From positions 2,571 to 66,570 of the forward strand of contig PBLQ01000043.1 in assembly GCA_002721815.1 (NCBI GenBank): a DNA stretch of 64,000 nt. The letters are read 5' to 3'. How positions within the stretch are numbered: the first letter of the stretch is position 1; each line of letters starts with the position of its first letter. A model generated the notes under the pieces. The model saw only the letters and a program-made list of their open reading frames with translations. It ran no database searches and was not told the origin of the DNA. Of the stretch, positions 3,065-40,367 are shown one piece after another. This DNA is from Myxococcales bacterium. GTDB taxonomy: Bacteria > Myxococcota > UBA727 > GCA-2721815. A program made the position numbers and the translations under genes.

Positions 3065-3066
3065 AC

Positions 3067-3621: not shown

Positions 3622-4342
3622 AGACCTTTGGGTGCCCGTGGCCGCCTTTCTGACCTTTGTGTTGATCAAAACGCTGTCGTGGACTTGGCGCGTGCGATTT
3701 GTTCCCGAGAATGCCTTAGAGCGCGCCCGAAGCTATAATGAAGGCACCTACCTTTTGGCCTGTTGGCATGAAAACAATTTAGCCGCGATGTTCTGTCATT
3801 TAGACGTAAAGGGCGCGACTTTGGCCTCAAGAAGAAACGCGGGCCAAATCTTATCTTTGACCATCAAGCGGTTTGGATGGGACACCATTCGAGGCTCACG
3901 CAAACGTGGCGGTAAAGAGGCCCGCGAGGCGATGGTCAACTATCTCCAACAGAACAACTTGCCGGTTGCCATCACGGTGGATGGGGCGAGTGGCCCCCGT
4001 CGCAGAACCAAGCCCGGTATTTTGAACATTGCCGTCCGAACTGGGGTGCCCATCGTTCCCGCGGTTGGGCTCGCCAGCCGATATTGGGTCATCAAAAGTT
4101 CTTGGGACCAAATGCGTGTGCCCAAACCGTTCGCCAGACTCACCTGCGCCTACGGAGAGCCGCTTTACCCGCCGACCGATCTGAAAGGTGAAGCTTTTGA
4201 TGCCTATTTGGTTAAAATTAATAAAGAATTGAACGCCATCGAAGCACGCTTGGCCGAGCAAATTGGGCACACCCTGCCGCCCATTTCTCAGGCGCTGTTG
4301 GAGGCCTCCGAATCCGAGGCGCCTCCGCCACAAACAACCTAA
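3611..4342 (+). CDS. DUF374 / lysophospholipid acyltransferase-superfamily protein
   Basis: 243 aa with an N-terminal TM helix. ACWHENNL and ITVDGASGPRRRTKPG motifs are typical of DUF374. Overlaps the folA end by 11 nt (operon thyA-folA-DUF374). Confidence 0.75.
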   Translation: MRVKDLWVPVAAFLTFVLIKTLSWTWRVRFVPENALERARSYNEGTYLLACWHENNLAAMFCHLDVKGATLASRRNAGQILSLTIKRFGWDTIRGSRKRGGKEAREAMVNYLQQNNLPVAITVDGASGPRRRTKPGILNIAVRTGVPIVPAVGLASRYWVIKSSWDQMRVPKPFARLTCAYGEPLYPPTDLKGEAFDAYLVKINKELNAIEARLAEQIGHTLPPISQALLEASESEAPPPQTT

Positions 4343-4376
4343 ATAAAAGACCTTTTTGGCTCTCCTTTGGTGGCTT

Positions 4377-4391
4377 TGGCAGTGGATCTGC
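4377..4391 (+). promoter_or_regulatory. Possible sigma54 (-24/-12) promoter upstream of ORF 4485
   Basis: TGGCAG-TGGAT-CTGC has GG and GC spaced exactly as in the TGGCAC-N5-TTGC consensus. It lies 94 nt upstream of the ATG. There are two mismatches to consensus. Confidence 0.3.
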
Positions 4392-4484
4392 CTTTGAAAA
4401 GGGGATAGCCTTGGCTGAGAAGGTTCGTTCCAAAATGATCCTTGGGAGCGCCCCAGAAAATCATTGTCAGAGAGCACGTAGTTT

Positions 4485-6056: not shown

Positions 6057-6161
6057 AACCAGCCAAAACCCCCTATAAAAGGTGTCAAAACCCACTAAAA
6101 GTGCAAAAAATTTGGAATCTACGGGATCAATGTAGGATGATGGCGCCTAATTGGACCACAT

Positions 6162-7820
6162 GTGTCCACATGGGGCCTGGCATTTGTATCAATGACCGAA
6201 AGGCAAGCCGAGATGCTCAACGGTAGGGCAGAAGAAAGACGTGCGTTTGTTGCGGAAGTGGATGTGCTTCACGCAGGCCGTCCTGCACCCAAAAGGCTCT
6301 GGGGGAAAAACCTCAGCGAAAAAGGCATGTTTTTGCAGGTCGGTCACGGTTTTCGTGTTGGCCAAAGGCTCTCTTTGCGTTTTGATCTCAATGGGACTGA
6401 GGTTCACATCCCTTCTGCAGAGGTGGTTTGGGTCCGCAGCCAAAAAGAAGGGGTGCTCGAAGCTGGAGCGGGTTTACGATTTGAAGACATCAAACCTGCT
6501 GATCGTGAAAAAATGCGAACGTACATTTTAGAAACCGATGTGGACAGTGGTTTGCCCGGGGCCCTGAAAGAAAGTGTCAAGCCCGTTAGTGTTTCTGACA
6601 TCACGGAGGTACCCCAAACCCGTGCGGGCTTTGCGGCTTCATTGTTACCACTCAAGAGCCCGAGGCCAGTGACCATGCGGCCGAGTCACCGTTCTGTGGT
6701 GCCCAATCTCACCCATGCCGTGACTCTGTTGCGCAAAGGGCCCGTACTTTCCACCCCGCCTGTACATCCTTCCATGCATTCTTTTCTCGAGCCCAGAGAA
6801 AGCGAGCTGCGCAACGCCAAAGCAGTTACAACGCCACAGACGGATGTACCAGAGAACAACACCCTGGTGAATAGCGATCAGCTTTTCTCGGACGAATCAC
6901 CCAGTTTGTACGAGCAAGAAACGGCTATTTTAAACAATGGCGTAACGCCGATGGGGTCTTTGGCCTTTGAGGATCAACCACCAGGCTTACGGGCTTTGGA
7001 TGGTCAAGAACACCCCACAAAGAACGAGTCACGTTCTCGCAAAGAACCCGAAGAGCCCGCCTTCTTACATTACGCCAAAGACATAAAAAAAGAGCAACGT
7101 TTCGAAGCGGGCGATTTATCTGCAGTGGATTTACCAAACGCCTCGCCGCGACAGGCCATTTATCGACGGAAAAAGAAAACGTCGCCTTTGATTTCCACCT
7201 TCTTTTTTGTGGTGATGGCGGGTGTGGGTTTCTTTTTGTTGTGGCGGCCTTCCCCCCCTACTGCTTACGAGTTTGACGTCCCGTCCGAAAAGGGTACGCA
7301 AGCAAGGTTGGTCCTCAGTGAGGACGGCGTGGTGACTCAGGATACCCCGGCGGAAAAAAAGACCAGTCCCAAGACAGCACCCGTGGTTGTTCCATCGCCC
7401 ACTGCGTCTACGCCAAAGAAGGTGAAAACCAAAACCGAACAACCGGCGCCCAAAGCGCAAGACAATAATACGGATTTAGCACAGGCTGCCCCGGTCGAGA
7501 TTGAAAAGGTGAGTGGAAAAAAGATCTACACGCCCCAATTGGTCACGGAGTACGGAAGGTTGCACCTCGGCATCACTGGTGGAAAAGTGGTGCGGTCTTT
7601 CGGATTGATTCGCCCCGCCAGAGTGGTGGTGGATCTCGAAGGTGCCAAACACCCGGGCAACATTACGTTTAAGGTGGAAAAGCATGGCATCAAAAAAGTT
7701 CGGATTGGACGGCCCGATGGCCGCTTGGTTCGGGTGGTCATCATCACCGAAGGCGAACGAAGGCCTCAGGCCATTTCCAGCGTGAAGCGAAAATCAAAGC
7801 TGTCGGTGGCTTGGCAATAA
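6162..7820 (+). CDS. PilZ domain - TM helix - AMIN domain protein
   Basis: RAEER (RxxxR) and NLSEKG (D/N-x-S-x-x-G) c-di-GMP motifs at aa 22-55. Disordered linker, then TM helix LISTFFFVVMAGVGFFLLW. C-terminal AMIN-like segment (RPARVVVDLEGA...VRIGRPDGRLVRVVII). The start may be the ATG at 6192. Confidence 0.8.
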   Translation: MSTWGLAFVSMTERQAEMLNGRAEERRAFVAEVDVLHAGRPAPKRLWGKNLSEKGMFLQVGHGFRVGQRLSLRFDLNGTEVHIPSAEVVWVRSQKEGVLEAGAGLRFEDIKPADREKMRTYILETDVDSGLPGALKESVKPVSVSDITEVPQTRAGFAASLLPLKSPRPVTMRPSHRSVVPNLTHAVTLLRKGPVLSTPPVHPSMHSFLEPRESELRNAKAVTTPQTDVPENNTLVNSDQLFSDESPSLYEQETAILNNGVTPMGSLAFEDQPPGLRALDGQEHPTKNESRSRKEPEEPAFLHYAKDIKKEQRFEAGDLSAVDLPNASPRQAIYRRKKKTSPLISTFFFVVMAGVGFFLLWRPSPPTAYEFDVPSEKGTQARLVLSEDGVVTQDTPAEKKTSPKTAPVVVPSPTASTPKKVKTKTEQPAPKAQDNNTDLAQAAPVEIEKVSGKKIYTPQLVTEYGRLHLGITGGKVVRSFGLIRPARVVVDLEGAKHPGNITFKVEKHGIKKVRIGRPDGRLVRVVIITEGERRPQAISSVKRKSKLSVAWQ

Positions 7821-7823
7821 AAA

Positions 7824-7841
7824 GCGGTGGGCTGCCACCGC
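7824..7841. terminator. Hairpin between convergent genes (possible bidirectional terminator)
   Basis: GCGGTGG-GCTG-CCACCGC is a perfect 7-bp stem with a 4-nt loop, in the 38-nt gap between the stops at 7820 (+) and 7859 (-). AAA precedes it; there is no long T-run after it. Confidence 0.45.
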
Positions 7842-7858
7842 CCACATCATCGCATTAA

Positions 7859-8593
7859 TTAAAGCAGGGATGGTTGCCGGGAGTGACCGGTGAGAATGTG
7901 ACGTGTGCCTTGCGGCTGGTGAGCAGTGCTTTGAATGGCGTTAAAAACAGTTTCAAAGTGTGCGCGTTCTCTGGGAAAGTTCAAATCTTCGGTGTCTACG
8001 ATGAGCACGGGACACTCTGTGAGTTGGCCGAAGAAACGATCGTAGGCCTCCATGAGATCTTTGAGGTAGCCCGGGTCGATGTTTTTCTCAAAGGAGCGAC
8101 CGCGTTGCTGAATGCGCTCCAAAATCACATCCAGTGGTGCCCTTAAATAGACCACGAGTTCTGGCGTGCGCACCTGCGACTGAAGGGCTTGAAAGACTTG
8201 GTCGTACAAGGCCAGCTCGGAGCCCGATAAGGTAAGTTCGGCAAAGATTCGGTCTTTGGCGAACAAGTAATCTGCCACCACCCGTTGCTGAAACAGGTCG
8301 GGTTGGTTCAGCTGTTCTTGTTGTTTGAAGCGGGAGAGTAAGAAGAACATTTGCGTTTTAAAGGCATGAGCTTTTGAGTCTTCGTAAAATTCCGGCAGGA
8401 ATGGATTTTCTTCCACCACTTCTAAGATGGTTTTTGCGTCTACCGCATCGGACCACAGTGCTGCGAGGGTGGTTTTGCCAACGCCGATACATCCCTCCAA
8501 AACCACGTAACCAGGGTGATGGGAGGCCTGGTTGGCTGGGGTGGCTTTGTCGGTTTGTCCGTTGCTGTTGGTGTCCGCCGTAACTTGATCCAT
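7859..8593 (-). CDS. Deoxynucleoside kinase
   Basis: P-loop GCIGVGKTT, ENPFLPEFY, DRIFAE, and lid QQRGRSFE. Start taken at the internal ATG 8593 (MDQVTAD...); the ORF extends to 8650. Confidence 0.85.
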   Translation of the reverse strand: MDQVTADTNSNGQTDKATPANQASHHPGYVVLEGCIGVGKTTLAALWSDAVDAKTILEVVEENPFLPEFYEDSKAHAFKTQMFFLLSRFKQQEQLNQPDLFQQRVVADYLFAKDRIFAELTLSGSELALYDQVFQALQSQVRTPELVVYLRAPLDVILERIQQRGRSFEKNIDPGYLKDLMEAYDRFFGQLTECPVLIVDTEDLNFPRERAHFETVFNAIQSTAHQPQGTRHILTGHSRQPSLL

Positions 8594-8676
8594 GGTGATC
8601 CATCTCCTCATCGACCCACCTACTTTGCAGCCACGGCGACCATCTGTCAAAGCGTGCGTTGAGGTTTTTTACGATC

Positions 8677-9273
8677 TCACCGCCGGGTGGGTGGCAGCCA
8701 TTTTTGTTTTTTTGGGGTGGGCTTTGAAGGCAGCAAGGCGGGGGTGCCGGTGTTCGGCGCCCGAGCCGGCGCGGGTGCAACTTTAGGAATCAATGCCCCG
8801 CAAAAATCCATCAATGCCGCTCGAACCAGGGGCTGCAAGTCGTGAAAGGTGCTGGCGTACAAGCGCTTTTTTTCTTTGGGTTTTTGTCCTTTGCCGGGTT
8901 GGGTCTGACAACTCAAATCCACCCAATGCCCTTTTTTGTTTTTGCCAAAACGGGCTTTGACCCAAACTTGCGCCTCTTTCACAAAAGCTTCGAGCCGTTG
9001 AATATCAGCGGCTTGGGTGGGGTGGATTTCGGTGTTGCCCAGCCGGCGGGCCAGGTCTTTTTTGGATTTGAGCAAGCCTTCGTACGCCACATTATCGTGG
9101 CCCACGCGCTTGGCCAGGGCGTTGGAGACCCAATTGGCCAAGGCTTGGGCGTCCGAAATCCGAAACCCCACGTTGCCCATGTCTTCGAGCACCACTTTCG
9201 TGGGACTTTGCGACCATGATATTGAAGTGCTTATTAAAGTAAATGTTACGATGACCAGATGGGGAATGCGCAT
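8677..9273 (-). CDS. Hypothetical secreted protein
   Basis: Start taken at ATG 9273 (MRIPHLVIVTFTLISTSISWSQS, signal-peptide-like). The longer ORF to 9459 would overlap the divergent MoxR gene. Basic Pro/Lys-rich tail. Confidence 0.6.
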   Translation of the reverse strand: MRIPHLVIVTFTLISTSISWSQSPTKVVLEDMGNVGFRISDAQALANWVSNALAKRVGHDNVAYEGLLKSKKDLARRLGNTEIHPTQAADIQRLEAFVKEAQVWVKARFGKNKKGHWVDLSCQTQPGKGQKPKEKKRLYASTFHDLQPLVRAALMDFCGALIPKVAPAPARAPNTGTPALLPSKPTPKKQKWLPPTRR

Positions 9274-9409
9274 GGTGTGTCCTCTGTTAAACAGACGAAA
9301 TGGAACAAGCCTTATTCTACTTTTTTGACGGGTTTTCTGAAAAAAGACAACATCTTGATTCCCATAGAATGAAACGGTTAGAACGGTCCATCGACGAAAA
9401 GGAATCCCC

Positions 9410-10450
9410 ATGAGTGATACAGGTTCTGGCGCACCCGCGCTCACATTAAAAACAGCCACCAGCCAAGAAGCAGACGTGGCTCAAATTCAGACCATGGCGG
9501 CCAAACTGGACCAACTGCGTGCTCAGGTCTCGCGGAAAATCGTGGGCCAAGAAGAAGTGGTGGAACTGCTGCTGCTCACTTTGTTCGCCCGCGGACACGC
9601 TTTGTTGATCGGCGTGCCTGGCTTGGCAAAGACGCTATTGATTCAGACTTTGTCTGAGGCCATGGACTTGTCTTTTTCGCGTATTCAATTCACCCCCGAT
9701 TTGATGCCATCTGACATCACGGGCACCGAGATTTTAAACGAAGACCCAGAAACAAAAAACAGAACCTTTCAGTTTGTGAAGGGGCCCGTGTTCGCCAACG
9801 TATTGCTCGCCGATGAAGTGAACCGAACACCGCCTAAAACTCAGGCTGCTTTATTACAAGCCATGCAAGAACGCGAGGTCACTTCGGCGGGCAAAACATT
9901 CGGACTGCCCGAACCCTTCTTGGTTTTCGCCACCCAAAACCCCATCGAGCAAGAGGGCACCTACGTGTTGCCAGAGGCACAGCTGGATCGTTTCATGTTC
10001 ATGATCAACGTGGGGTACCCCTCTATGGATGAAGAAGTTCGTATTGTGCAAACCACGACATCAGACCACGAACCCCAAATCGAAAATGTCATCAACAGAG
10101 ATGAAATTCAGCAGTTTCAAGAGCTGGTCCGCCGCATGCCGGTGGCCGAGCATGTGGTGCGTTATGCTGTTTCCTTGGTACGGGCCAGCCGACCGGGCGC
10201 CGACAATCCATATGACGCCGCTAAAAAGATTCAGTGGGGCGCTGGTCCGCGTGCCAGCCAAAGTCTGATTTTAGCCGCTAAGGCCAAAGCAGCTTTGTCG
10301 GGACGATACGCAGCCGGTACCGACGACGTAAAAGCGGTGGCTACGGCTGTTTTAGGACATAGGGTGGTGGTTAATTTTGACGCCGCCTCCGAAGGGGTGG
10401 GCGCCATTGCCGTGGTGGAAGAATTGCTTTCTCAGGTGAGTGCCCAATAG
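9410..10450 (+). CDS. MoxR-family AAA+ ATPase
   Basis: Walker A GVPGLAKT, Walker B LLADEVNR, followed by PPKTQAALLQAMQE. 346 aa. Confidence 0.93.
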   Translation: MSDTGSGAPALTLKTATSQEADVAQIQTMAAKLDQLRAQVSRKIVGQEEVVELLLLTLFARGHALLIGVPGLAKTLLIQTLSEAMDLSFSRIQFTPDLMPSDITGTEILNEDPETKNRTFQFVKGPVFANVLLADEVNRTPPKTQAALLQAMQEREVTSAGKTFGLPEPFLVFATQNPIEQEGTYVLPEAQLDRFMFMINVGYPSMDEEVRIVQTTTSDHEPQIENVINRDEIQQFQELVRRMPVAEHVVRYAVSLVRASRPGADNPYDAAKKIQWGAGPRASQSLILAAKAKAALSGRYAAGTDDVKAVATAVLGHRVVVNFDAASEGVGAIAVVEELLSQVSAQ

Positions 10451-29232: not shown

Positions 29233-32200
29233 GTGGTGAATAAAGAAACCAACGGATTTGGTGTGAACGCCAGCTATGTGGCTATTTTGCGGGCCCAATG
29301 GGTTTTGGATCCTGCATCCGTCCCTGTGGAGTGGGCGCAATATTTCGCGGCGTCACCCGATGACGAGACACCGGTGACGGCCGTACCCGAAACAAAATTC
29401 GTTGCGAAAAAAGAGGCCCAAAAGCCAGCGCCTCAAACACCAGTCAAAAATGACTCTGAAGAAGAAGTGCCACTCTTAGGCATCAGTAAAAAGATTGCTG
29501 AAAACATGGAGGCGTCATTAGGGCTCCCCACGGCCATGTCCACCCGGGAAATCCCGGTGAAAGTGTTGGAGGAAAACCGACGCATCATCAACAGTTATCT
29601 GACGGATACAGCAAATGCCCGCTGCTCATTCACCCACCTCATCGCGTTTGCCATGGTGAAGGCGGCCACTGAAGTTCCGGCCATGAATCTTGGTTACCGA
29701 AACGGGGCGAAAGGCCCCGTCAAATTGGTGCGAGAAAACATGAATTTAGGATTGGCCATTGATTTACCAGGCCGTGGCGGATCCCGAACTTTGGTGGTAC
29801 CCAACATTAAATCCTGCCAAGACATGGATTTTTGGGCTTTCTTTTCGGCCTACAATGACCTGATCAAAAAAGCGCGAAGCGGTAAGCTCAGCCCAGCCGA
29901 CTTTGCTGGTACCACTATCACACTGACCAATCCAGGTGGCTTGGGCACTGTGTCATCGAACCCTCGGTTGATGTTGGAGCAAGGGACCATCGTGGCCACG
30001 GGGAGAATCGGTTACCCCGCTGAATATGAAGCCACGGCGCCGGAAACATTGCGCGCCCTAGGCATTGGCAAGGTGATGTCCATGACCTCCACCTATGATC
30101 ACCGGGTGATTCAAGGGGCTGAATCGGGGGCATATCTCAAATACATTCATGAACTGCTCAATGGGGAACACGGTTTTTACGACGAGGTTTTTCGCGCCTT
30201 AAAAATCCCTCACTTTCCCTATCGGTTGGTTCAAGATCGCTCGGTGGCTTTCGCACAGGGTGGCACGTTAACCGAAACCGAGCGCGCGATGCGTGTGTCT
30301 CAGTTGATTCATGCTTTTCGCGTCCGCGGTTACTTGTTGGCCAACACCGACCCGCTCGATTTACAACCTCGAGAGCACCCAGAGTTAAATCTAGACGCTT
30401 ATGGACTTACCCTTTGGGATTTAGATCGAGAGTTCTTAACCTTGGGGGTCTTGCCTGAACGCACTGCACCTTTCCGGCAAATTTTGGGCCGTCTGCGTGA
30501 TACCTATTGCCGACGTATGGGTGTGGAATACATGCACATCCACGAACCAGAAGAACGTCGGTGGTGGCAGCAAAACTTGGAGCGCGAACCGCTCACTTTT
30601 AGTGTGGATGAAAAAAGACGTATTTTGTCCAAAGTCACCGAGGCAGAAACCTTTGAACGATTTTTACACAAACGGTTCATGGGTCACAAACGGTTTAGTA
30701 TCGAAGGCGGGGAATGTCTCATTCCAATTTTGTCCGCTTCGCTCACTTCTGCGGCAACCTACGGCGTGAACGACCTTCATATCGGTATGGCGCATCGCGG
30801 TCGACTCAATGTTTTGGCCAATGTGGTGGGTAAGCCTGTGGAGGCCATTTTTGCGGAGTTTGAAGACATTGAGACAAAAAGCCAGCATGGCTCTGGGGAT
30901 GTGAAGTACCATTTGGGCGCCAAAGGTGAATACCTTTGGAGTGGCATCACCAATGACACGGATGCCTACGATGAGCGTTCCGTCCGTGTTGAATTGGCTT
31001 GTAACCCTTCACATCTCGAAGCCGTAAGCCCGGTGGTGTTGGGGTCCACCCGTGCGCGACAAGATTTGGTGGGCGATAAAGTTCGCAACCGTGTGGTGCC
31101 AGTCTTAATCCACGGTGACGCTGCATTTGCTGGCCAGGGCGTGGTGTATGAAACCTTGCAAATGAGTGGTCTCAAAGGATACAGCGTGGGCGGCACGGTG
31201 CACGTGATCGTGAACAACCAAATCGGCTACACCACCTCTCCGGACAAAGCGCGAACATCGGTGAGTGCTTCAGACGTGGCGCGTGCCATCTTTTGCCCTG
31301 TTTTACGGGTCAATGGCGACGACCCCGAAGACTGCGTGAGAGCTGCCTTATTGGCATTTCGTTACCGGATGGAATTCAACAAAGATGTGATCATCGATAT
31401 GGTTTGTTATCGAAAATACGGTCATAATGAAGGCGACGAGCCTGGCTTCACGCAGCCCGTTTTGTACCGGGCCATCAACGAGCACCCGTCCGTGCGAACC
31501 TTGTACGCCGATTTGCTCGTTCGCCGTAAAGATTTTACACGCGAAGAAGTGGATGAGATTCAAGAAACCTACTACGCGAGCCTCGATGCGTCTTTGGCCG
31601 CCATTCGTGAAAAGGGTGACGACGCCATCCCTGAAGAAGCAGGTGTGCTTCCCGGTGCCATCGATCGCGATGCGGAAGAAGAGCCTGTGACTGCGGTCGA
31701 TGAGGCCCTGCTCAAGCAAATCACCGAAAAGGTGACCTACGATCCCAAAGTGGTGGATATCCACCCACGTGTGATCAAAACCGTTTTGGAACGTCGGCGA
31801 AAGATGGTCCTTGAAGAGGGCAAAGGTATTGATTTCGGCATGGCTGAAACATTGGCTTACGGGTCTTTGTTACTTGAAGGCATCCCTGTCCGTTTGAGTG
31901 GGCAGGACGTGGGTCGTGGCACATTCGCCCACCGTCACGCCATTTTATATGACAACAAAGACGGTCGCCCTTACATCCCATTGCAATACCTGTACCGCTC
32001 TAAAGACGATGAGGCCGAAAGCATGTCCGCCTCACATTTTCGGGTGTATGACTCTTTGTTGAGCGAAGAAGGAGTGCTGGGTTTTGAGTACGGCTATTCC
32101 GTAACGCATCCAGATGCGCTGGTTATTTGGGAAGCCCAATTCGGAGATTTCTATAATGGTGCGCAGATCCAGGTGGACCAATTTATTGCGTCGGGCGAAG

Positions 32201-32886
32201 TGAAATGGGGCCAACGGTCTCGAGTGGCTCTGCTGTTGCCCCACGGTTATGATGGACAAGGGCCCGAGCACTCCTCGGCGCGTATTGAACGGTTTTTGCA
32301 GCTGTGCGCAGAGGACAACATGCGCGTGGCGAACTGCTCTACGCCTGTGCAGCTCTTTCACTTGCTGCGTTTGCAAGCCAAACAGCCTAAAAAACCATTG
32401 GTCATCTTTTCTCACAAAAGTTTGTTGCGCGCTGACTTCGCGGCTTCTGCCCTCGAAGATTTTACTCAGGGTGGTTTTCAAACCATTATCGAAGATGATG
32501 ATGCGCCCCAAACAACCCAGAAAACAATTTTATGTTCCGGAAAAATTTATTGGGACTTACAAAAAGAGCGGAAAGCATCTCACCCAGATGCACCTATTCG
32601 CATTTTGCGCTTAGAACAACTTTATCCTTTTCCAGCGGCTGAGCTTACGAAAATGCTCGGCACGAAGACCAAAGATGTAACTTGGGTACAAGAAGAACCT
32701 GCCAACGGTGGGGCTTATTTGTTCGTGAAACAAATGTTGGAAGAATTAAATATCAAAACCCATTACGTTGGGCGCGCGGCGGCCGCCAGTCCCGCCACGG
32801 GTTCCATGAAAAAACACAAGGCCCAGCAAGAAACGATTATCAAGGCAGCTCTCACAGAGATGTCAACGAAAGAGTACCATGTTTAA
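29233..32886 (+). CDS. sucA: OdhA/Kgd-type multifunctional 2-oxoglutarate dehydrogenase (E2-like acyltransferase core fused to E1o)
   Basis: 1217 aa. N-terminal third has an E2 catalytic core with TSTYDHRVIQGAESG. The rest is SucA-like (RFSIEGGE, HRGRLNVL, NQIGYTT, WEAQFGDF). No lipoyl domain is visible. GTG start. Confidence 0.9.
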   Translation: MVNKETNGFGVNASYVAILRAQWVLDPASVPVEWAQYFAASPDDETPVTAVPETKFVAKKEAQKPAPQTPVKNDSEEEVPLLGISKKIAENMEASLGLPTAMSTREIPVKVLEENRRIINSYLTDTANARCSFTHLIAFAMVKAATEVPAMNLGYRNGAKGPVKLVRENMNLGLAIDLPGRGGSRTLVVPNIKSCQDMDFWAFFSAYNDLIKKARSGKLSPADFAGTTITLTNPGGLGTVSSNPRLMLEQGTIVATGRIGYPAEYEATAPETLRALGIGKVMSMTSTYDHRVIQGAESGAYLKYIHELLNGEHGFYDEVFRALKIPHFPYRLVQDRSVAFAQGGTLTETERAMRVSQLIHAFRVRGYLLANTDPLDLQPREHPELNLDAYGLTLWDLDREFLTLGVLPERTAPFRQILGRLRDTYCRRMGVEYMHIHEPEERRWWQQNLEREPLTFSVDEKRRILSKVTEAETFERFLHKRFMGHKRFSIEGGECLIPILSASLTSAATYGVNDLHIGMAHRGRLNVLANVVGKPVEAIFAEFEDIETKSQHGSGDVKYHLGAKGEYLWSGITNDTDAYDERSVRVELACNPSHLEAVSPVVLGSTRARQDLVGDKVRNRVVPVLIHGDAAFAGQGVVYETLQMSGLKGYSVGGTVHVIVNNQIGYTTSPDKARTSVSASDVARAIFCPVLRVNGDDPEDCVRAALLAFRYRMEFNKDVIIDMVCYRKYGHNEGDEPGFTQPVLYRAINEHPSVRTLYADLLVRRKDFTREEVDEIQETYYASLDASLAAIREKGDDAIPEEAGVLPGAIDRDAEEEPVTAVDEALLKQITEKVTYDPKVVDIHPRVIKTVLERRRKMVLEEGKGIDFGMAETLAYGSLLLEGIPVRLSGQDVGRGTFAHRHAILYDNKDGRPYIPLQYLYRSKDDEAESMSASHFRVYDSLLSEEGVLGFEYGYSVTHPDALVIWEAQFGDFYNGAQIQVDQFIASGEVKWGQRSRVALLLPHGYDGQGPEHSSARIERFLQLCAEDNMRVANCSTPVQLFHLLRLQAKQPKKPLVIFSHKSLLRADFAASALEDFTQGGFQTIIEDDDAPQTTQKTILCSGKIYWDLQKERKASHPDAPIRILRLEQLYPFPAAELTKMLGTKTKDVTWVQEEPANGGAYLFVKQMLEELNIKTHYVGRAAAASPATGSMKKHKAQQETIIKAALTEMSTKEYHV

Positions 32887-32898
32887 GGAGATGTTTGT

Positions 32899-35031
32899 AT
32901 GACCACCTCAGAGCAAACCCAGGAACAAGTGCAAGAAAAGCCCTTGCCGGTAAAACGAAAACGAAATGGTGTGGTGACACCCATTTGGGATATGCCCAAA
33001 GGTTTAAGCCCCGAGCGCATGTTGGAAGCTTATCGTTTGATGCTCACCTCCAGACATCTGGACAAAAAGATGCTGGTACTTCTCAAGCAAGGAAAAAGTT
33101 TCTTTCACATCGGTGCTGCAGGTCACGAGGCGGTACAGATGGCTGCCGCATTCGCATTGAGCGCCAAGCGTGATTGGGCCTACCCTTACTACCGTGATCA
33201 AGCGCTGGCTGTGGGTTTGGGCATGACGGCCAAAGAAATCTTCTTGGCATTTTTGGCCAAAGGCGATGACCCCAACTCTGGGGGGCGACAAATGCCCCAG
33301 CACTACGGTCACAAAGACCTCAACATTCCATCACAGTCTTCTTCAACGGGCATGCAATACTTGCAGTCGGTGGGCTGTGCATTTGCCTCTAAGCGACGGT
33401 TCCATGAGGAGAATGGTCAAACGGCCAAGCCCGACTACGAAGTAACAGTTGTGGGATCCGGCGAGGGGACCACCAGCCAAGGTGATTTTCACGAAGCACT
33501 CAACTGGGCTGCCCGTGAAAAAGCACCGGTGATCTTTTTGGTGGAAAACAATGGGTATGCCATCAGTGTGCCCATTCGGGAGCAAACCGCCGGTGGCAAA
33601 GTGTCCAATTTAGGGCAAGGCTACGAAGGCTTGGATGTCATTGAGGTAGACGGCTGTAACTTTGCAGAGAGCTACAAAGCATTTCAAAAAGCCATTGCAC
33701 GCGCCCGTGGCGGGGATGGTCCAACTTTGATCGAAGCCAACGTGGTGCGCTTACTGCCCCACAGTTCTTCAGATGATCAACGTAAATACCGTCCAGCGGA
33801 CGAGCTGGCAGAAGATTTGGCGCGCGACCCCATTCCAGCACTTAAAAGTTGGTTGGTAGAGCGCAACTTGGCTACCGATGAAGAACTCGAGGCCATGGAC
33901 GTTCAAGTCAAACAAGACGTGGATGACGCTGCCGTTTGGGCAGAAGCACAAGCCATGCCGGCACGTGACACGGCAGAAAAATGGGTACTGTCCGAAGAGC
34001 CCGAACCCGAACTGGTAGAACCCACCATCGATGAAGCTGGCACGGGAACGGTTTTGGTGGACGCCATCAATCGCGCCTTAGATGAAGAGCTTTCACACAA
34101 CCCGAAAATGCTCGTGTTTGGTGAAGATGTTGCCGGCGGTAAGGGCGGTGTGTTTACAGCGACTCGACACCTCACAGAAAAGCACGGTAAAGATCGTGTT
34201 TATAACTCTCCTTTGGCAGAGTCGAGCATTGTTGGGGTCTCCATTGGCTTGGCAACTCGAGGCTATAAGCCAGTTCCTGAAATTCAATTTGGTGATTATA
34301 TTTGGACCGCCATGATGCAAATCCGTAACGAGATGTCCACCTTGCGTTACCGCTCCAACAATGCGTTCAGTTGTCCCATTGTGTTGCGGGTGCCGGTAGG
34401 GGGTTACATCCACGGTGCATTGTGTCACTCCCAAAATATCGAGGCATTTTTTGCACATATCCCCGGGATTAAGATCGCACTGCCTTCTAATGCATTGGAT
34501 GCTTATGGTTTGCTCAAATCAGCCATTCGTTGCAACGATCCGGTCTTGTTCTTAGAGCACAAAAACTTGTACCGACAAAACTTTGCCAAACGCGTGCTGC
34601 CCAGCGATACCGATTGGGTTTTGCCTTTTGGTAAAGGCCGGGTATGTCGTGAGGGTGAAGATTTAACCATCATCACTTATGGCGCTATGGTGAACCGCGC
34701 CATGCAGACCGCTTCTAAGCTCGCAGATGAAGACATCGACATTGAAGTCATCGATTTGCGAACCATTAATCCGGTGGATTGGGACCTTATCATGTCTAGC
34801 GCGAAGAAAACGGGCAAGGTTTTGGTCTTACACGAAGACACACGCTTTATGGGGTACGGTGCAGAACTCGCGGCAGAAATTTCTGAGCGTTGCTTTGAGC
34901 ACCTCGACGGTCCCGTCACACGCTTGGCGGGCAAAGACACACCCGTTCCCTTTAACTGGGATTTGGAAGAAGAGATCTTGCCGCAAGGCGACGATGTGGT
35001 GAATGCAGCGAGGAAGCTCGCGGCCTACTAA
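32899..35031 (+). CDS. Fused E1 alpha/beta subunit of a 2-oxoacid dehydrogenase (TPP-dependent)
   Basis: The N-terminal half is E1-alpha-like (GEGTTSQGDFHEALNWAA...VENNGYAISVP). The C-terminal half is E1-beta-like (VFGEDVAGGKGGVF...NSPLAESSIVG...EIQFGDY). 710 aa. Confidence 0.88.
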   Translation: MTTSEQTQEQVQEKPLPVKRKRNGVVTPIWDMPKGLSPERMLEAYRLMLTSRHLDKKMLVLLKQGKSFFHIGAAGHEAVQMAAAFALSAKRDWAYPYYRDQALAVGLGMTAKEIFLAFLAKGDDPNSGGRQMPQHYGHKDLNIPSQSSSTGMQYLQSVGCAFASKRRFHEENGQTAKPDYEVTVVGSGEGTTSQGDFHEALNWAAREKAPVIFLVENNGYAISVPIREQTAGGKVSNLGQGYEGLDVIEVDGCNFAESYKAFQKAIARARGGDGPTLIEANVVRLLPHSSSDDQRKYRPADELAEDLARDPIPALKSWLVERNLATDEELEAMDVQVKQDVDDAAVWAEAQAMPARDTAEKWVLSEEPEPELVEPTIDEAGTGTVLVDAINRALDEELSHNPKMLVFGEDVAGGKGGVFTATRHLTEKHGKDRVYNSPLAESSIVGVSIGLATRGYKPVPEIQFGDYIWTAMMQIRNEMSTLRYRSNNAFSCPIVLRVPVGGYIHGALCHSQNIEAFFAHIPGIKIALPSNALDAYGLLKSAIRCNDPVLFLEHKNLYRQNFAKRVLPSDTDWVLPFGKGRVCREGEDLTIITYGAMVNRAMQTASKLADEDIDIEVIDLRTINPVDWDLIMSSAKKTGKVLVLHEDTRFMGYGAELAAEISERCFEHLDGPVTRLAGKDTPVPFNWDLEEEILPQGDDVVNAARKLAAY

Positions 35032-35045
35032 TCATTTTCGTTCAA

Positions 35046-38000
35046 TTGAGAATGAATAACGCCAGCGAGTCTGGCGTTTTTTGTTGGCTTGGGTTAATGT
35101 TTGGAAGCTACGAACAATATGTGGGGGTGAGTGGTTTGCACTTTAAATGGTTGTTTTTGTTTTTGTTTTTGTTTTTTCTTTTCGCTGCCGGCTGTCCTAA
35201 TCCACCGCCAGCAGCTGACCCTTTGCCTCCCGATGGCCCACCCTCTCAAAACGCCACCGATGCAGGTGAAGTCATCGCTCCGGCACCACCGCTAGATGCC
35301 GGCATGGACCCTTCCGATCCGCCACCTATCGCTGATGCTGGTTCCGATCCTTCCGAACCAATCCTTGTCACTGATGCAGGCACAGAAATACCGGTGCCCG
35401 CAATAGATGCTGGAGTCGATGATGTTGTATCGGTGCCCGACGCGGGGGTAGATGTTCCTGTTGCTGATTTTGATGCAGGGATGATTTTGGTCGCAGATTC
35501 GGGGCCTGTTGCATCCCAAGATGCCGGGCTTGTTTGCGCGACTTGCCCAGAGGGAACGGTTGCGGGCACCGAAGGCTGCACTTGTGTGGATGTAGATGAG
35601 TGCGCCACGGCTAACGGCGGCTGCCATGCCAACGCCCTTTGCAGCAATGGGGCGGTGTCGGGCGCAGTTCCGGGATGCACCTGCAACGATGGTTTTTTTG
35701 GCGATGGTGCTGCTTGCAGCCCTTGGACCGTCTGCGGCGACAATGAATACGAACAAGAGGCGCCCACCGCAACCACAGACCGTGTTTGTGCTTCCATCAG
35801 CGTTTGTGATTTGGGTCATGGTGTGACTTCACCGGCCACCGGACAAAGCGACACGGTTTGCGAACCTTGCGAAACGGGCATCTCCTTTAGTGATGTGGTC
35901 GATGCCACCAGTGCATGTGAGCTGATCTCCCTTTGCGAAGCTGGGCAAGGTGTGGCCACTGCAGCATCGTCGCAAAGCGACACCCTTTGTGAGGCTTGTG
36001 TGTTGGGCACGAACTACAGCGACGTTGTCGATGGCACAAGCATTTGCCAAGCCGTGTCCGCCTGTCCTTTGGGTGAAGGCGTTACGGCCGCCGCCACCAC
36101 TATCAGCGATACCCAGTGCGCGTCTTGCGTGGCCGGTACCACCTTTAGCGATGTTGAAGACACCAGTGGGGAATGCAGACCGGTGGGCACTTGTGATTTG
36201 GGCCAAGGTGTGACTCAAGCGCCTACCACTGAAAGCGATACCCTCTGTGAGCCTTGTGCTCAGGGGAGCACCTTTAGCGCGGTGAATGACAGTATGAGTG
36301 GGTGTGAAGGGGTGACGGTTTGCGGTTTGGGTGAAGGCGCCACCTCTGCACCCACCGTGTCCAGCAATACGGTTTGCGAGCCTTGCGAAGCGGGCATCTC
36401 CTTTAGTGATGTGGTCGACGCCACCGGTGCATGTGAGCTGATCTCCCTTTGCGATGTTGGGCAAGGTGTGGCCACTGCAGCATCGTTGCAAAGCGACACC
36501 CTTTGTGAGGCCTGCGTGTTGGGCACGAACTACAGTGATGTTGTGGACGGCACAAGCATTTGCCAAGCCGTGTCCACTTGTGGACTGGGTGAAGGTGTTA
36601 CTGAAGTGGCCACAGTGCAAAGCGATACCGCGTGTGAACCTTGTGTAGAAGGCACCACCTATAGCGATGTGATCGATGACACCAGCGCGTGTGAGGCCGT
36701 TGCGTTTTGTGGGCCGGGAGAGGGTTTTGTGGCTGCGGCGACTTCAGAAAAAGACGTGATTTGTGAAGCCTGTGAGATGGGCGTCACCTTCAACAATGTT
36801 TCTGACGTACAAACACCCTGCCTCCAAGTGGCCACCTGCGCGGCGGGTTTTGGTTTAAGTCAATCGCCCACCTTTACCACAGATACGGTTTGTGAGCCCT
36901 GCGTGGCGGGCGAAACTTTTAATAGTGTTGATGATTCGACCACCACCTGCACCGTCATTGCCACCTGCGAAGAGGGTCAGGGGGTGACTCAAGTGGCCAC
37001 CGCGAGCACCAATACGATTTGCAGCGATTGCGAAGAAGGCGTTTCATTTAACAACACCAACGATGCCACGAGTACTTGCCAAGCTGCCAGCACTTGCCCG
37101 GTAGGTCAGGGCGTGGCGGTGGCGTCCACCGATACCGAAGATACGATTTGTGAAGCTTGCATCGCCGGGCAAAATTACAGTGACAGTGATGATCTCACCG
37201 CTTGTTTGACGGTGTCCTCTTGCGAAGCCGGTTTCGGGGTTGCCACAGAGGCCACGGCCGCCGCCGATACCCAATGCGAAGCCTGTGTGATGGGAGAGAC
37301 CTTCAGCAATGTGAACGATGCAACCTCTGTTTGTGAAGCCATCGCCCTTTGTCCTGTGGGTGAGGGGGTTTCGGTCTTTGCCACTGCAAGCGGTGATACC
37401 TATTGCGAAGCTTGTGAAGAAGGCATCACATTTAGTGATGTCGCCGATACGCAAGGTGAGTGTACACCCATTTCATCCTGCGATTTAGGCCAAGGCTTTG
37501 TGGCCGATGCCACGGTGACCAGCGACACTGTCTGCGAGGCCTGTGTGTGGGGTCAAACCTTTAGTGATGTGGATGATTTGCAGAGTGCCTGCGAAAGCAT
37601 CAACACCTGTCCCACCGGGCAAGGCGTTGTGGCGGAGGCCACGTTGAGTGCCGATACGTCCTGTGAAGATTGCCAATCAGGGGAGACTTATAGCGATGTG
37701 GATGACGCAGTATCACCTTGTGCTGCCATCACCACTTGCGATTTGGGTTTTGGGGTTTATGCCGGAAGCACGTCTTCTTTGGATACCATCTGTGTTGAGT
37801 GTGTGGCGGGCACCAATTATAGCGATGTGAACAATGCTGTGAACTATTGTGAAGACGTTGTACCCTGTCCTTTAGGTGAAGGCGTGGCCGAGGGCCCCTC
37901 AACACAGAGTGATGCGGTTTGCACCCCTTGCGTGGACGGCGAAACCTATAATGATGTGCTCGACGCAACCACCGCTTGTTTGGCGGTGATGGTTTGTGGT

Positions 38001-40367
38001 GAAGATGAGTTTGAAACCGTCGCCCCCAGTGTTGCGCTGGATCGCCAATGCGAAACGGTGTCTCCCTGTGGCCTCAATCAGGTGGAAACAGCGCCGCCTA
38101 CCGACACCACCGATCGCCAATGCGCTTGTATGGATTACTACGAATACGATGAATCGGATAATTGCATTCCGTCCGATTCCGATTCTGATGGCGTGCCCGA
38201 TATCTCTGACGCTTGCCGCGAAGGCGAGACCGGTTGGCTTTCAGACAGCAGTACCGATTATGACGGCGATGGTTGCCAAGATGCCACCGAAGACACGGAT
38301 GACGACAATGACAGCTTGAACGATGACTTGGATTGTGCGCCTTTAGATGCCAGCAAAAACATCCACCAAGATTACGATACCGATTGTGACGGGGCCGGGG
38401 AAGGGCTTGCCCACACCTTCAAAAGCGTTACCGTCGGACACCACCTGGTTTGCGGCATTCGAATCGACGATACGCCCGAGTGTTGGGCCGACAATGGTGC
38501 CTACGCTCCAACCTCCGCGGCACAAGCAGAGTTTGTTGTTGCGGGGTACGGCGAGTCAAACTTTGGTGAATATCACGATGTGTGCGCTCTGGAGAAAGAT
38601 ACTGGCGATCTGCGTTGCAGCGGCACCTCTTCTCTGGGTAGCAATATGCCTTCAGGGTTTTGCTGTGATAACCCTTGGCTTCAAGTGGACGTTTTCGGCA
38701 TTACCAGTGGCATTTGCGGAGTGACCCAAGATAATCGACTCACGTGTTGGCAAGGGAGTAATTCTTATTACGACCAAATTCCTACCGATGCTGACAACGG
38801 TGACGCGCCCTATACTGATTGGATCCAAGTGACGGCGGGCGATGGCCATTATTGCGGTTTGCACAGCGATGGTGTTTTAGATTGTTGGGGATGGAATTAC
38901 TTTGGGCAGTCCGATATTCCCACCGATACCGATGGGAGCGCTTACACCGATTGGGTTGCGGTGAGTGCGGCCGAAACTCACACGTGCGGCATTCGCAATA
39001 CCAACGAAGCGGTTTGTTGGGGAGGAAGTGATGGGTTTGCCGCAGGGGTTGTGCCCACCCAACTCGATGGCGACCCTTATGCTTTCACGAAGATTTCAGC
39101 TGATGTAGATCACACCTGTGGGATGCTCGAGGACAATTCAATCCTGTGTTGGGGCGACAACACCCACGGCCAAATTGACGTGCCTTTAAACAACGGGGTT
39201 GCAGTGACGGATTGGATCGATTTTGACACCGGTCCTTATCGCACGTGTGGTTTGCATGCCAATGGCATCATCGAATGTTGGGGGCGATATACCACCGATG
39301 CCTATGCCGTGCCTCAGACCACCGCGCCGTACACCGACTGGAGAAGCGTAGATACCAGTTATGGTTTTTGCGGCATTCACGCTGACAATCAATTGGACTG
39401 TTGGGGTTTTAATTCGGCATCAATTACGCCAACGGCAGTGAACAGTGCTGAATCTTACGGTCCGGCTTGGCAAGAAGTCGCTTCGAGCCGTTATTTGATT
39501 GCTGGAATCGATACCTCTGGAGACATCAAGAGCTTTGGAAATGGTGCTTTTTATGGAGTTAACGTACCTGTGGATGGTCTCGGAGAGACGTTAACAGAGT
39601 GGCAATCCTTGGCGGTAGGGGGCTATCAAAACGGGCATGTTAATGTGTGCGGAATTCAAGGTGATGGGTATCTTTATTGTTGGGGCGGTGACAGCGATTA
39701 CTTCCCTGAGCAAAATGAGATCCCCACCGATGCAGGGGAGCCTTATAGCGATTGGGTGCAAGTGGGGGTGGGTTACCGCAACGCTTGTGGCTTGCGGGCG
39801 TCAGGAGAGATTTATTGCTGGGGCGATAATACCTACAACCAACTGGAGGTGCCCGACCACGATGATTGGGTAAGCCTTTCGGTTGCAAATACCTATAACA
39901 AAAGTGATTACAACAGCCCGCATTTCAGTTGCGGTTTGCGTGAAACGGGCGAGGCGTTCTGTTGGGGCAGCACGCAAAGTGACGTTTCTACCGTGCCTTC
40001 CATTGCATCGGACCTCTCATGGACCAAAATCCAAGCTGGGCATAAAAGAGGTTTTGGAGAGTTAAGCGATGGTTCTTTGATCGTATGGGGTCACAACACC
40101 AGTAGTACGATGGAAGCAGCCATTGCACTGCCGGCAGGGCAACGCTATAAAGCATGGGATGCGCGATCTGTCTTTTGTGGGATATTGCCCTCGGGTTTGA
40201 TGCAATGTTTCAACTGGTCAGGCGAGGATATTTCTGATGAGGTCCCCAGACGCTCATACGCTGTGGATAATTGCATGGGCCTCGCCAATGCCGACCAAAC
40301 CGACTCGGATGACGATGGTTACGGCGATGCCTGTGACAGTGCACCGAACGATTCCGGTGTGCATTAA
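35046..40367 (+). CDS. Giant mosaic lipoprotein: DAG-rich linker, EGF-Ca module, 17 TNFR-type Cys-rich repeats, TSP3 repeats, ~14 RCC1-like blades, C-terminal TSP3
   Basis: 1773 aa. Lipobox LFAAGC at aa 45-50. CVDVDECATANGGCHANALC (EGF-Ca). Tandem 43-aa Cys repeats. DSDSDGVPDISDAC / DYDGDGCQD (TSP3). Repeated hCG...G.l.CWG.N..GQ blades. The start is uncertain (TTG 35046, ATG 35052, or ATG at M18). Confidence 0.88.
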   Translation: MRMNNASESGVFCWLGLMFGSYEQYVGVSGLHFKWLFLFLFLFFLFAAGCPNPPPAADPLPPDGPPSQNATDAGEVIAPAPPLDAGMDPSDPPPIADAGSDPSEPILVTDAGTEIPVPAIDAGVDDVVSVPDAGVDVPVADFDAGMILVADSGPVASQDAGLVCATCPEGTVAGTEGCTCVDVDECATANGGCHANALCSNGAVSGAVPGCTCNDGFFGDGAACSPWTVCGDNEYEQEAPTATTDRVCASISVCDLGHGVTSPATGQSDTVCEPCETGISFSDVVDATSACELISLCEAGQGVATAASSQSDTLCEACVLGTNYSDVVDGTSICQAVSACPLGEGVTAAATTISDTQCASCVAGTTFSDVEDTSGECRPVGTCDLGQGVTQAPTTESDTLCEPCAQGSTFSAVNDSMSGCEGVTVCGLGEGATSAPTVSSNTVCEPCEAGISFSDVVDATGACELISLCDVGQGVATAASLQSDTLCEACVLGTNYSDVVDGTSICQAVSTCGLGEGVTEVATVQSDTACEPCVEGTTYSDVIDDTSACEAVAFCGPGEGFVAAATSEKDVICEACEMGVTFNNVSDVQTPCLQVATCAAGFGLSQSPTFTTDTVCEPCVAGETFNSVDDSTTTCTVIATCEEGQGVTQVATASTNTICSDCEEGVSFNNTNDATSTCQAASTCPVGQGVAVASTDTEDTICEACIAGQNYSDSDDLTACLTVSSCEAGFGVATEATAAADTQCEACVMGETFSNVNDATSVCEAIALCPVGEGVSVFATASGDTYCEACEEGITFSDVADTQGECTPISSCDLGQGFVADATVTSDTVCEACVWGQTFSDVDDLQSACESINTCPTGQGVVAEATLSADTSCEDCQSGETYSDVDDAVSPCAAITTCDLGFGVYAGSTSSLDTICVECVAGTNYSDVNNAVNYCEDVVPCPLGEGVAEGPSTQSDAVCTPCVDGETYNDVLDATTACLAVMVCGEDEFETVAPSVALDRQCETVSPCGLNQVETAPPTDTTDRQCACMDYYEYDESDNCIPSDSDSDGVPDISDACREGETGWLSDSSTDYDGDGCQDATEDTDDDNDSLNDDLDCAPLDASKNIHQDYDTDCDGAGEGLAHTFKSVTVGHHLVCGIRIDDTPECWADNGAYAPTSAAQAEFVVAGYGESNFGEYHDVCALEKDTGDLRCSGTSSLGSNMPSGFCCDNPWLQVDVFGITSGICGVTQDNRLTCWQGSNSYYDQIPTDADNGDAPYTDWIQVTAGDGHYCGLHSDGVLDCWGWNYFGQSDIPTDTDGSAYTDWVAVSAAETHTCGIRNTNEAVCWGGSDGFAAGVVPTQLDGDPYAFTKISADVDHTCGMLEDNSILCWGDNTHGQIDVPLNNGVAVTDWIDFDTGPYRTCGLHANGIIECWGRYTTDAYAVPQTTAPYTDWRSVDTSYGFCGIHADNQLDCWGFNSASITPTAVNSAESYGPAWQEVASSRYLIAGIDTSGDIKSFGNGAFYGVNVPVDGLGETLTEWQSLAVGGYQNGHVNVCGIQGDGYLYCWGGDSDYFPEQNEIPTDAGEPYSDWVQVGVGYRNACGLRASGEIYCWGDNTYNQLEVPDHDDWVSLSVANTYNKSDYNSPHFSCGLRETGEAFCWGSTQSDVSTVPSIASDLSWTKIQAGHKRGFGELSDGSLIVWGHNTSSTMEAAIALPAGQRYKAWDARSVFCGILPSGLMQCFNWSGEDISDEVPRRSYAVDNCMGLANADQTDSDDDGYGDACDSAPNDSGVH
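35854..36059 (+). repeat. Copy A of a near-identical ~206-bp intragenic duplication
   Basis: Aligns base for base with 36370-36575 (offset 516 nt = 4 repeat units), with roughly a dozen mismatches by eye. Confidence 0.85.
36370..36575 (+). repeat. Copy B of a near-identical ~206-bp intragenic duplication
   Basis: See copy A. It encodes CEPCEAGISFSDVVDATGACELISLCDVGQGVATAASLQSDTLCEACVLGTNYSDVVDGTSICQAVS, against the almost identical peptide in copy A. Confidence 0.85.

Follow-up and report, generated by a model that had tools for sequence, protein, structure and literature searches.

A tandem array of TNF-receptor-type cysteine-rich domains joined to RCC1_2 propeller blades in a predicted lipoprotein of a Myxococcales bacterium

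We describe here a gene of an uncultured Myxococcales bacterium, from a predatory group of soil/freshwater type (Myxococcota), whose product carries a long tandem array of cysteine-rich domains (CRDs) of the tumour necrosis factor receptor (TNFR) type. The gene lies on contig PBLQ01000043.1 of assembly GCA_002721815.1, within a stretch of 64,000 nucleotides (nt; contig positions 2,571 to 66,570) that we refer to as the window and whose numbering is used throughout. A first-pass annotation, made from the letters of the window, had read 17 consecutive TNFR/CD40-type units at 35805-37997, and a regular-expression split of the translation gives the same coordinates and the same count. As the description of a TNFR array that account stands, but the array takes up no more than the middle of a protein of 1773 amino acids (aa), and the CRINKLY4-like pair of RCC1_2 propellers in the C-terminal half had been missed. 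The features of the gene are as follows, each with its basis.

35046..40367 (+): whole gene, an open reading frame (ORF) of 1773 aa including the stop codon, with codon usage like that of its neighbours (translation)
35097..35195 (+): predicted signal peptide with a lipobox-like end, HFKWLFLFLFLFFLFAAG followed by Cys (read from sequence)
35151..35176 (+): (TTGTTT)x4.3 microsatellite encoding the LFLFLFLF core of the signal peptide (Tandem Repeats Finder)
35193-35195 (+): Cys50, the presumed lipidated residue (read from sequence)
35196..35534 (+): Pro/Asp/Ala-rich low-complexity linker with repeated 'DAG' motifs, aa 51-163 (translation)
35535..35717 (+): Cys-rich segment with an EGF-like domain at aa 186-224 (Pfam EGF_3)
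35733..35804 (+): leading B1-type half-module (C230-x17-C248, aa 230-248) and a 5-residue connector (Cys spacing)
35805..37997 (+): 17 tandem 43-aa TNFR-type units, each a B1 (C-x17-C) followed by an A1 (C-x15-C) module (Pfam, PDB search, model)
37995..38129 (+): two trailing B1-only modules, C984-x17-C1002-x5-C1008-x17-C1026 (Cys spacing)
38130..38375 (+): acidic thrombospondin type-3 (TSP3)-like segment (DSDSDGVPD.., DYDGDGC.., DTDCDG), presumed to bind calcium (translation)
38376..40220 (+): ~14 propeller blades of the RCC1_2 or 'crinkly' type (Pfam RCC1_2, PDB search)
40254..40364 (+): C-terminal TSP3-like repeat, DNCMGLANADQTDSDDDGYGDACD (alignment to the T3 repeats of COMP)

The cysteine-rich array

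The segment 35805-37997 is in frame with the 1773-aa ORF and encodes residues 254-984 (translation). It divides into 17 consecutive units that start at residues 254, 297 and so on to 941, 16 of them 43 aa and one 42 aa long, on the framework C-x17-C-x2-C-x15(14)-C-x5-. The four cysteines are invariant in 17/17 units and the x15 loop is present in 16, while identity among the units ranges from 31 to 90% with a mean of 47%. At the DNA level the array has a period of 129 nt, and a 296-nt stretch over units 1-2 has a second, 85% identical copy at an offset of 516 nt downstream. This indicates at least one round of growth in which a block of four units was duplicated. Of the 17 units, 14 are matched by a DNA pattern written for the 43-aa repeat; the dinucleotide-shuffle control at hand (0 matches in 100) belongs to an earlier, differently spaced DNA pattern and not to this one. 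The Cys-repeat region extends past the 17 units on both sides, with one half-module before them (aa 230-248) and two after them (aa 984-1026).

In the register of the Pfam alignment an A1 module (C-x2-G-x-[FY]...C) is followed by a B module that has the C4-C6 pair only (C-x2-G-x-G-V...DT-x-C). The units lack the C3/C5 pair of the six-Cys form, making the module B1 rather than B2; the names A1, B1 and B2, like the disulfide pairs of CD40, are used here as we take them to stand in the nomenclature of Naismith & Sprang. All 12 cysteines are invariant across 68 aligned three-unit segments, and the alignment suggests disulfide pairing 1-2 (in A1) and 4-6 (in B1), which would give two disulfides per unit. 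The first-pass annotation had spoken of A1/B2 modules. The framework is A1+B1 instead, but A1+B1 is a natural TNFR variant that is present in the aligned CD40 segment itself, and the topology is thus compatible with a TNFR assignment.

The units are genuine TNFR-type CRDs of the A1+B1 form. The Pfam family TNFR_c6 (PF00020) matches the array with 190 bits against a cut-off of 29.4 bits (E=7e-57, 15 stretches, the best spanning profile positions 1-39 of 39), a likeness far beyond chance. It is the sole Cys-repeat family of Pfam matched by the protein, Ephrin_rec_like (PF07699; GCC2_GCC3) giving no match at E<=1, and there is no already named bacterial Cys-repeat family to account for the units instead (NCBIfam, 0 families at E<=1; database relatives carry the name 'hypothetical protein'). 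When all PDB chains were searched by sequence, the array found only ectodomains of the TNF receptor superfamily, headed by CD40 (1.3e-11) and p75NTR (3.2e-11) and followed by weaker matches to TNFR2, RANK, OPG, DR6, HVEM, DcR3, Fas, DR5 and OX40. The units match the CD40 chains 8yx1/3qd6 Cys for Cys in the HMMER alignment, where the CD40 segment that had been quoted at first pass is found verbatim, and each unit shares 14-21 of 44 positions (33-48%) with the human CD40 CRD3/4 segment.

Structure prediction points the same way. An AlphaFold model of three units built on a 68-row alignment has a mean predicted local distance difference test score (pLDDT) of 97.6 and a predicted template modelling score (pTM) of 0.80; it replaces a run on a 5-row alignment, which had reached pLDDT 52. 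The model has the elongated beta-hairpin ladder fold typical of TNFR ectodomains, and its best 50 matches in a Foldseek search of the PDB are all TNFR ectodomains (template modelling (TM) scores of 0.62-0.63 for CD40 at 30% identity, 0.56 for p75NTR and 0.54-0.56 for TNFR2). The TNFR/CD40 identity originally proposed is therefore upheld by the TNFR_c6 match, by PDB sequence matches of about 1e-11 and by the model, and the nearest named relatives are vertebrate p75NTR and TNFR2, together with CD40 among solved structures.

The closest comparison is with CRD3-CRD4 of CD40, and also with p75NTR and TNFR2, with which the array has in common the TNFR_c6 family and the elongated fold (TM 0.62). With CD40 it further shares the Cys spacing C-x17-C-x2-C-x14/15-C-x5-C, the A1+B1 composition and the motifs G-x-G-V, [ST]DT-x-C-E-x-C and [FY]S[DN]V. 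It differs in having 17-20 modules against four in CD40-type receptors, and in being made of one module type only, with no six-Cys A1-B2 CRD. The anchor is a predicted N-terminal lipid in place of the C-terminal transmembrane helix of CD40, the host is a bacterium, a cytoplasmic TRAF or death-domain part for signalling is lacking, and no TNF-like ligand is known. The protein does not have the make-up of a signalling or decoy member of the TNF receptor superfamily, given its lipobox-like N-terminus, the lack of a death domain or signalling match in Pfam, and the C-terminal propellers.

The N-terminus and the propeller half

The ORF has several candidate starts (TTG at 35046, ATG at 35097, GTG at 35121/35127), and which of them is used is uncertain. 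The N-terminus reads K-W-LFLFLFLFFLF-A-A-G-C50; it is compatible with a permissive PROSITE-style lipobox rule, but position -3, where the lipobox has [LVI..], is Ala. Similar lipoprotein-type N-termini are found in 27 related proteins. The (TTGTTT)x4.3 repeat within the signal peptide is perfect, and slippage by 6 nt would shorten or lengthen the hydrophobic h-region in frame. The Pro/Asp/Ala-rich linker that follows (aa 51-163) has no match in a Pfam scan, and the EGF_3 match beyond it (E=4.5e-6, 27.2 bits) falls slightly below the 28.5-bit cut-off. Across the whole protein the Pfam scan finds only TNFR_c6, RCC1-type and EGF_3 families, and no death domain, kinase or other signalling module.

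The C-terminal half matches Pfam RCC1_2 with E=1.1e-32, and its ~14 blades are enough for two seven-bladed propellers. A pair of cysteines 9-10 residues apart is present in 12 of the ~14 blades, and ten of these 12 fit the strict pattern C-x10-C-[WF]-[GNQ], mostly as C-x10-CWG; the 'crinkly' repeat has been defined in the literature by C(x~10)CWG (PMC4617170). The best PDB match of this head is the ectodomain of ACR4, the CRINKLY4 (CR4) receptor kinase of Arabidopsis (7a0j, E=1.4e-11), with RCC1 and UVR8 reaching only about 1e-3 in the same sequence search. On either side of the blades lie the TSP3-like sequences: the C-terminal repeat aligns to the T3 repeats of COMP in 3fby with E=1.8e-4, the acidic segment at 38130..38375 aligns to them weakly, and one relative (P0192) has a Pfam TSP_3 match at the place equivalent to the acidic segment.

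The likeness to CR4 extends to the layout. Both CR4/ACR4 and the window protein combine an RCC1_2 propeller bearing one disulfide motif per blade with a TNFR-related Cys-rich part, and in both the Cys-rich part is membrane-proximal and the propeller distal. The window protein differs in having two propellers to the one of ACR4, and in having no kinase or transmembrane domain found by Pfam or in the translation, no dedicated helix predictor having been run. The Cys-rich parts are also unlike. In CR4 this is a compact CRD of ~90 aa, a beta-sandwich with six disulfides packed on the propeller and followed by the transmembrane helix and kinase (bioRxiv 10.1101/2020.08.10.245050); here it is a long canonical TNFR array, with TSP3-like repeats between it and the propeller. 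Plant CR4 is absent from the 120 proteins closest in sequence to the head, which are bacterial and of the ordinary RCC1_2 kind; the likeness is therefore one of module types and layout, and a special orthology with plant CR4 was rejected. The crystal-structure paper on CR4 describes per-blade disulfides as a feature unique to CR4 (bioRxiv 10.1101/2020.08.10.245050); the pairing of a TNFR-related part with a propeller of this kind outside plants contradicts that uniqueness. The C-x10-CWG blade motif is present within 38451-40220, a region whose nearest relatives are bacterial proteins with Pfam RCC1_2.

Relatives among Myxococcota and on eukaryote-like contigs

With the whole protein as query only relatives of the RCC1 part were found, a homologue search with a three-unit alignment returned 4 fragments only, and a word-indexed protein search gave only five environmental proteins beside vertebrate p75NTR and TNFR2. 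Far more came from an exhaustive profile search of 1.84 billion representatives: 1471 proteins have E<=1e-3, of which 439 reach E<=1e-10 and 70 reach E<=1e-30. At least 27 relatives, drawn from the best 150 matches and from those found earlier, have Myxococcota-style lipoprotein N-termini. TNFR_c6 is matched in 27/27 of them (best E=5.6e-79), and PF07699 in 11, beside TNFR_c6.

These Myxococcota lipoproteins share with the window protein the order of a lipoprotein-type N-terminus, a TNFR_c6 array and a beta-propeller or other head. The array stands N-terminal to SBBP propellers in five of them and to RCC1_2 in four, and other relatives have FG-GAP, PD40, purple-acid phosphatase, GH115_C, CBM96, Laminin_G_3 or Fibrinogen_C domains behind it. 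The combination of TNFR_c6 with RCC1_2 is found in P0148 and P0192, and in MFT3926082.1, a 'hypothetical protein' of a Myxococcales metagenome-assembled genome (MAG) on a 9.5-Mb contig. The repeat itself is of a different type, with a unit of 41 aa, an A1 loop of x13 in 195/221 units and the motifs DR-x-C and C-x2-W-x2-C, in contrast to the x15, DT-x-C-E-x-C and G-x-G-V of the window array. Identity between the two is ~31-32%, below the 34-35% of the window array to vertebrate p75NTR.

A DNA pattern for the 41-aa unit found at least 119 stretches in 185,579 reference genomes, of which at least 106 match the hidden Markov model (HMM) derived from the window at E<=1e-5. Among the matches listed nearly all are from Myxococcota, including Sorangium cellulosum So ce56 and So ce726, Haliangium, Archangium and Labilithrix, with further carriers in Sandaracinaceae, Kofleriaceae, Polyangiaceae, Bradymonadales and Microvenator. 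The bacterial array is thus not the singular case that the first-pass annotation implied, the more so as related arrays are also found on protist-like and virus-classed contigs. In So ce56 (NC_010162.1, locus L192 2140-4383) the gene encodes a 747-aa lipoprotein-type protein in which TNFR-like CRDs are followed by SBBP repeats; this cultured model myxobacterium offers a tractable experimental stand-in.

The x15 type of unit has another distribution. Searching the 185,579 reference prokaryote genomes with a strict x15 pattern gave 2 matches, both interrupted by in-frame stops, and thus no genuine array. Viral contigs gave none, and ten metagenome contigs were matched, mostly low-GC, microsatellite-bearing or single-gene and eukaryotic-looking. 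The x15 loop is common in the remaining, eukaryote-like set of relatives (144 units). The highest unit identity of any relative to the window array is found among the environmental, protist-like and virus-classed TNFR_c6 repeat proteins (P0003, P0014, P0015 and L264): P0003 ranks first, with 42% over 209 aa, ahead of p75NTR (34-35%) and of the best lipoprotein-type relative (32%). P0003, encoded on a 2.7-kb single-gene contig, has the x15 spacing, an EGF-like domain and TSP3 repeats. Like P0001 and P0004, and unlike the window protein, it combines a signal peptide with a C-terminal transmembrane helix and has no lipobox.

Other relatives of this type broaden the picture. P0006 (L134 1374-2924) combines TNFR_c6 with RCC1_2 on an 11-kb contig of 40% GC whose other, fragmentary genes have UCH, ankyrin and IFT122/THOC3-type WD40 matches; the contig looks eukaryotic or giant-viral, which implies that the pairing of TNFR and RCC1_2 is not confined to bacteria and plants. 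P0015, of 2447 aa with 17 TNFR-type stretches, is matched with 100% identity by genes on three contigs of IMG/VR, 52-164 kb long (L256, L257 and L258, each at 3001-10344), and contigs of 120-200 kb from several samples encode it as well. The ORFs flanking it have no Pfam match, so that its viral nature derives solely from the IMG/VR class; it may be a giant-virus surface protein. L264, one of the ten metagenome contigs and read over its whole 1424 nt on the minus strand, encodes canonical six-Cys A1-B2 CRDs (C-x15-C-x2-C-x2-C-x9-C-x7-C). These share SDT-x-C-E-x-C and YSDVDD with the four-Cys units of the window protein, and their score with the window-derived HMM is 442 bits. The loci L262-L267 are low in GC and eukaryote-like. 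L261 (Ga0315319_10008313, 4185 nt), among the same ten contigs, is bacterial-looking, with 53% GC and a non-lipoprotein signal peptide; its product has a myxo-type Cys repeat (C..G...E.CDDGN...DGC), an EGF-like DVDEC, x15-type TNFR units and GCC2/GCC3-like repeats, and among bacterial relatives it may come closest to the N-terminal half of the window protein. The module is common to Myxococcota, probable protists and probable giant viruses.

Origin and proposed role

The gene is flanked on both sides by housekeeping genes, encoding a 2-oxoglutarate dehydrogenase with fused E2 domain, a fused E1 alpha/beta dehydrogenase, NamZ and a molybdopterin oxidoreductase. The E1 gene has counterparts with 67-71% identity in Myxococcota MAGs from freshwater and groundwater. 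GC content is flat at 50-54%, the GC content at third codon positions (GC3) of the gene is 0.53 against 0.51-0.60 in 15 other ORFs, and its codon usage correlates with that of the pooled neighbours with r=0.92. These neighbours and the matching codon usage indicate that the gene is native to a Myxococcota chromosome and neither a contaminant nor a recent import. In relatives with a 58-71% identical E1 dehydrogenase no homologue lies near the E1 gene and the downstream genes differ; comparison with them defined no insertion site. Nine neighbouring genes scanned against Pfam contain no TNF- or C1q-like domain.

We consider it probable, though well short of certain, that the protein is a lipoprotein built as anchor, linker, stalk and head, in which the TNFR array is a rigid stalk for a binding head formed by the propellers. 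After export by the Sec pathway and probable lipidation at Cys50, ~59 disulfides would form in the oxidising envelope, and the ~20 TNFR-type modules would fold as a hairpin ladder of the CD40/TNFR kind and stack head to tail into a stiff rod. With a CRD length of ~2-2.5 nm, as in TNFR1 and CD40, ~18.5 CRD equivalents would give a rod of roughly 35-45 nm. This is longer than the periplasm is wide, making exposure at the surface or in the matrix likely. The rod would keep the two propellers, flanked by Ca-repeats and stapled by disulfides, off the membrane, and the propellers would be the likely ligand-binding part, with a component of a prey or matrix surface, for example, as the target. A stalk is suggested by the array preceding unrelated heads in the 27 lipoprotein-type relatives, and a stiff spacer by the combination of uniform units grown by duplication, an extended disulfide-braced fold and a recurrent layout. 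That the propeller is the binding part is argued from ACR4, where genetic data indicate that function requires the propeller but tolerates deletion of the CRD (bioRxiv 10.1101/2020.08.10.245050).

Several points weigh against this proposal. Lipidation and surface exposure are predicted from a sequence motif that lies behind an ambiguous start codon, the disulfide pairing is taken from an alignment rather than from coordinates, and the estimate of rod length borrows its dimensions from crystal structures of TNFRs. Bacterial proteins with CRD arrays are so far known from sequences and models. The x15 loop occurs in 1/221 units of the Myxococcota lipoproteins, which makes the analogy with them imperfect. 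Homogeneous repeats could, moreover, also fit multivalent binding by the CRDs.

This last point bears on two alternatives that place binding in the array itself. In one, the array would be an adhesive surface with multivalent, low-affinity contacts to polysaccharide, mineral or cell wall, and the propellers accessory. Long repeat arrays are typical of adhesins, and this one consists of 17 similar, solvent-exposed units rich in Ser, Thr and Asp that have expanded by duplication. Conservation is, however, concentrated at Cys, Gly and structural motifs, with the exposed loops varying, and the heads of the relatives are recognisable binding or enzymatic modules, so we regard an adhesive array as unlikely. 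In the other, which follows the ligand-trapping idea of the first-pass annotation, the array would bind TNF-homology trimers, C1q-fold trimers or some other protein along its length, as animal TNFRs and viral decoys do. The 33-48% identity to CD40 over CRD3/4, and the predicted fold with its match to ligand-binding TNFR ectodomains, are what such a receptor would show, but the units are near-uniform, all of the simplified A1+B1 form and with no B2 module, the nine scanned neighbours include no TNF- or C1q-like gene, and Pfam finds no signalling tail or death domain. Like arrays precede many unrelated heads in the relatives, and plant CR4, of like two-module layout, has a dispensable CRD and no TNF homologues in plants to bind (bioRxiv 10.1101/2020.08.10.245050). 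The idea thus finds no support here, and we judge a ligand trap distinctly unlikely.

A further alternative concerns origin: the gene might not be truly bacterial but the product of an assembly chimera, of eukaryotic contamination or of a very recent transfer from a eukaryote. Its closest unit-level relatives are indeed on eukaryote-like contigs (P0003 at 42%, and the low-GC L262-L267), where the x15 spacing is common, and that spacing is rare in Myxococcota lipoproteins and yields no genuine array under the strict pattern in the reference prokaryote genomes. Set against this are an uninterrupted 5.3-kb ORF between bacterial housekeeping genes on one contig, GC, GC3 and codon usage as in the neighbours, a bacterial lipobox-type signal, and an RCC1_2/TSP3 half typical of bacterial proteins. 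Contamination or a chimera was rejected on gene context and codon usage, and we hold a non-bacterial gene to be highly improbable. An older gain of the repeat type from microbial eukaryotes, or its donation to them, is possible, and would bear on the origin of the array rather than on its identity.

It is customary to regard TNFR CRDs as a module of animal receptors, CRINKLY4 providing a weak look-alike in plants. Here, modules of canonical TNFR type, whose units reach 48% identity to the human CD40 segment, form a routine part of Myxococcota lipoproteins, and their bacterial use is most likely that of a modular, disulfide-braced stalk rather than of a cytokine receptor. The domain type is one that a routine Pfam scan finds, and related genes lie unremarked in public genomes; what is new is a TNFR array that is bacterial, predicted to be lipid-anchored, non-signalling, all A1+B1 and 17-20 modules long. 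The wider pattern, in which TNFR modules serve as a probable stalk element in Myxococcota and are paired outside plants, as in CR4, with disulfide-stapled propellers, is under-described. A literature search on bacterial TNFR-type CRDs (TNFR_c6, myxobacteria, prokaryotes) found no relevant paper in the library searched. These proteins provide a data set for the question of where TNFR ectodomains originated, and structural or engineering work could draw on them for a TNFR scaffold that is simple, repetitive and encoded by a bacterium. We further suggest, tentatively and as a rather doubtful possibility, that the TNFR CRD and the disulfide-stapled RCC1_2 propeller form an old microbial stalk-and-head cassette of Myxococcota, marine protists and giant viruses, and that the ectodomains of animal TNFRs and plant CR4 descend from such proteins by transfer between Myxococcota-like bacteria and early eukaryotes. 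If so, the TNFR module would not be a metazoan invention, nor the blade disulfides of CR4 specific to plants.

Two minor observations concern the DNA in and beside the gene. Long antisense ORFs of 136-263 aa lie over the repeat region (35829-36620, 37044-37454 and 35246-35819, all on the minus strand); rather than being genes, they most likely arise because the sequence is repetitive and poor in stops. Upstream, 29233-32886 (+) encodes a 1217-aa 2-oxoglutarate dehydrogenase E1 that is fused, in the manner of OdhA/Kgd, to a 2-oxoacid acyltransferase (E2 catalytic) domain at its N-terminus, and it is followed at 32899-35031 by the fused E1 alpha/beta dehydrogenase of 710 aa.

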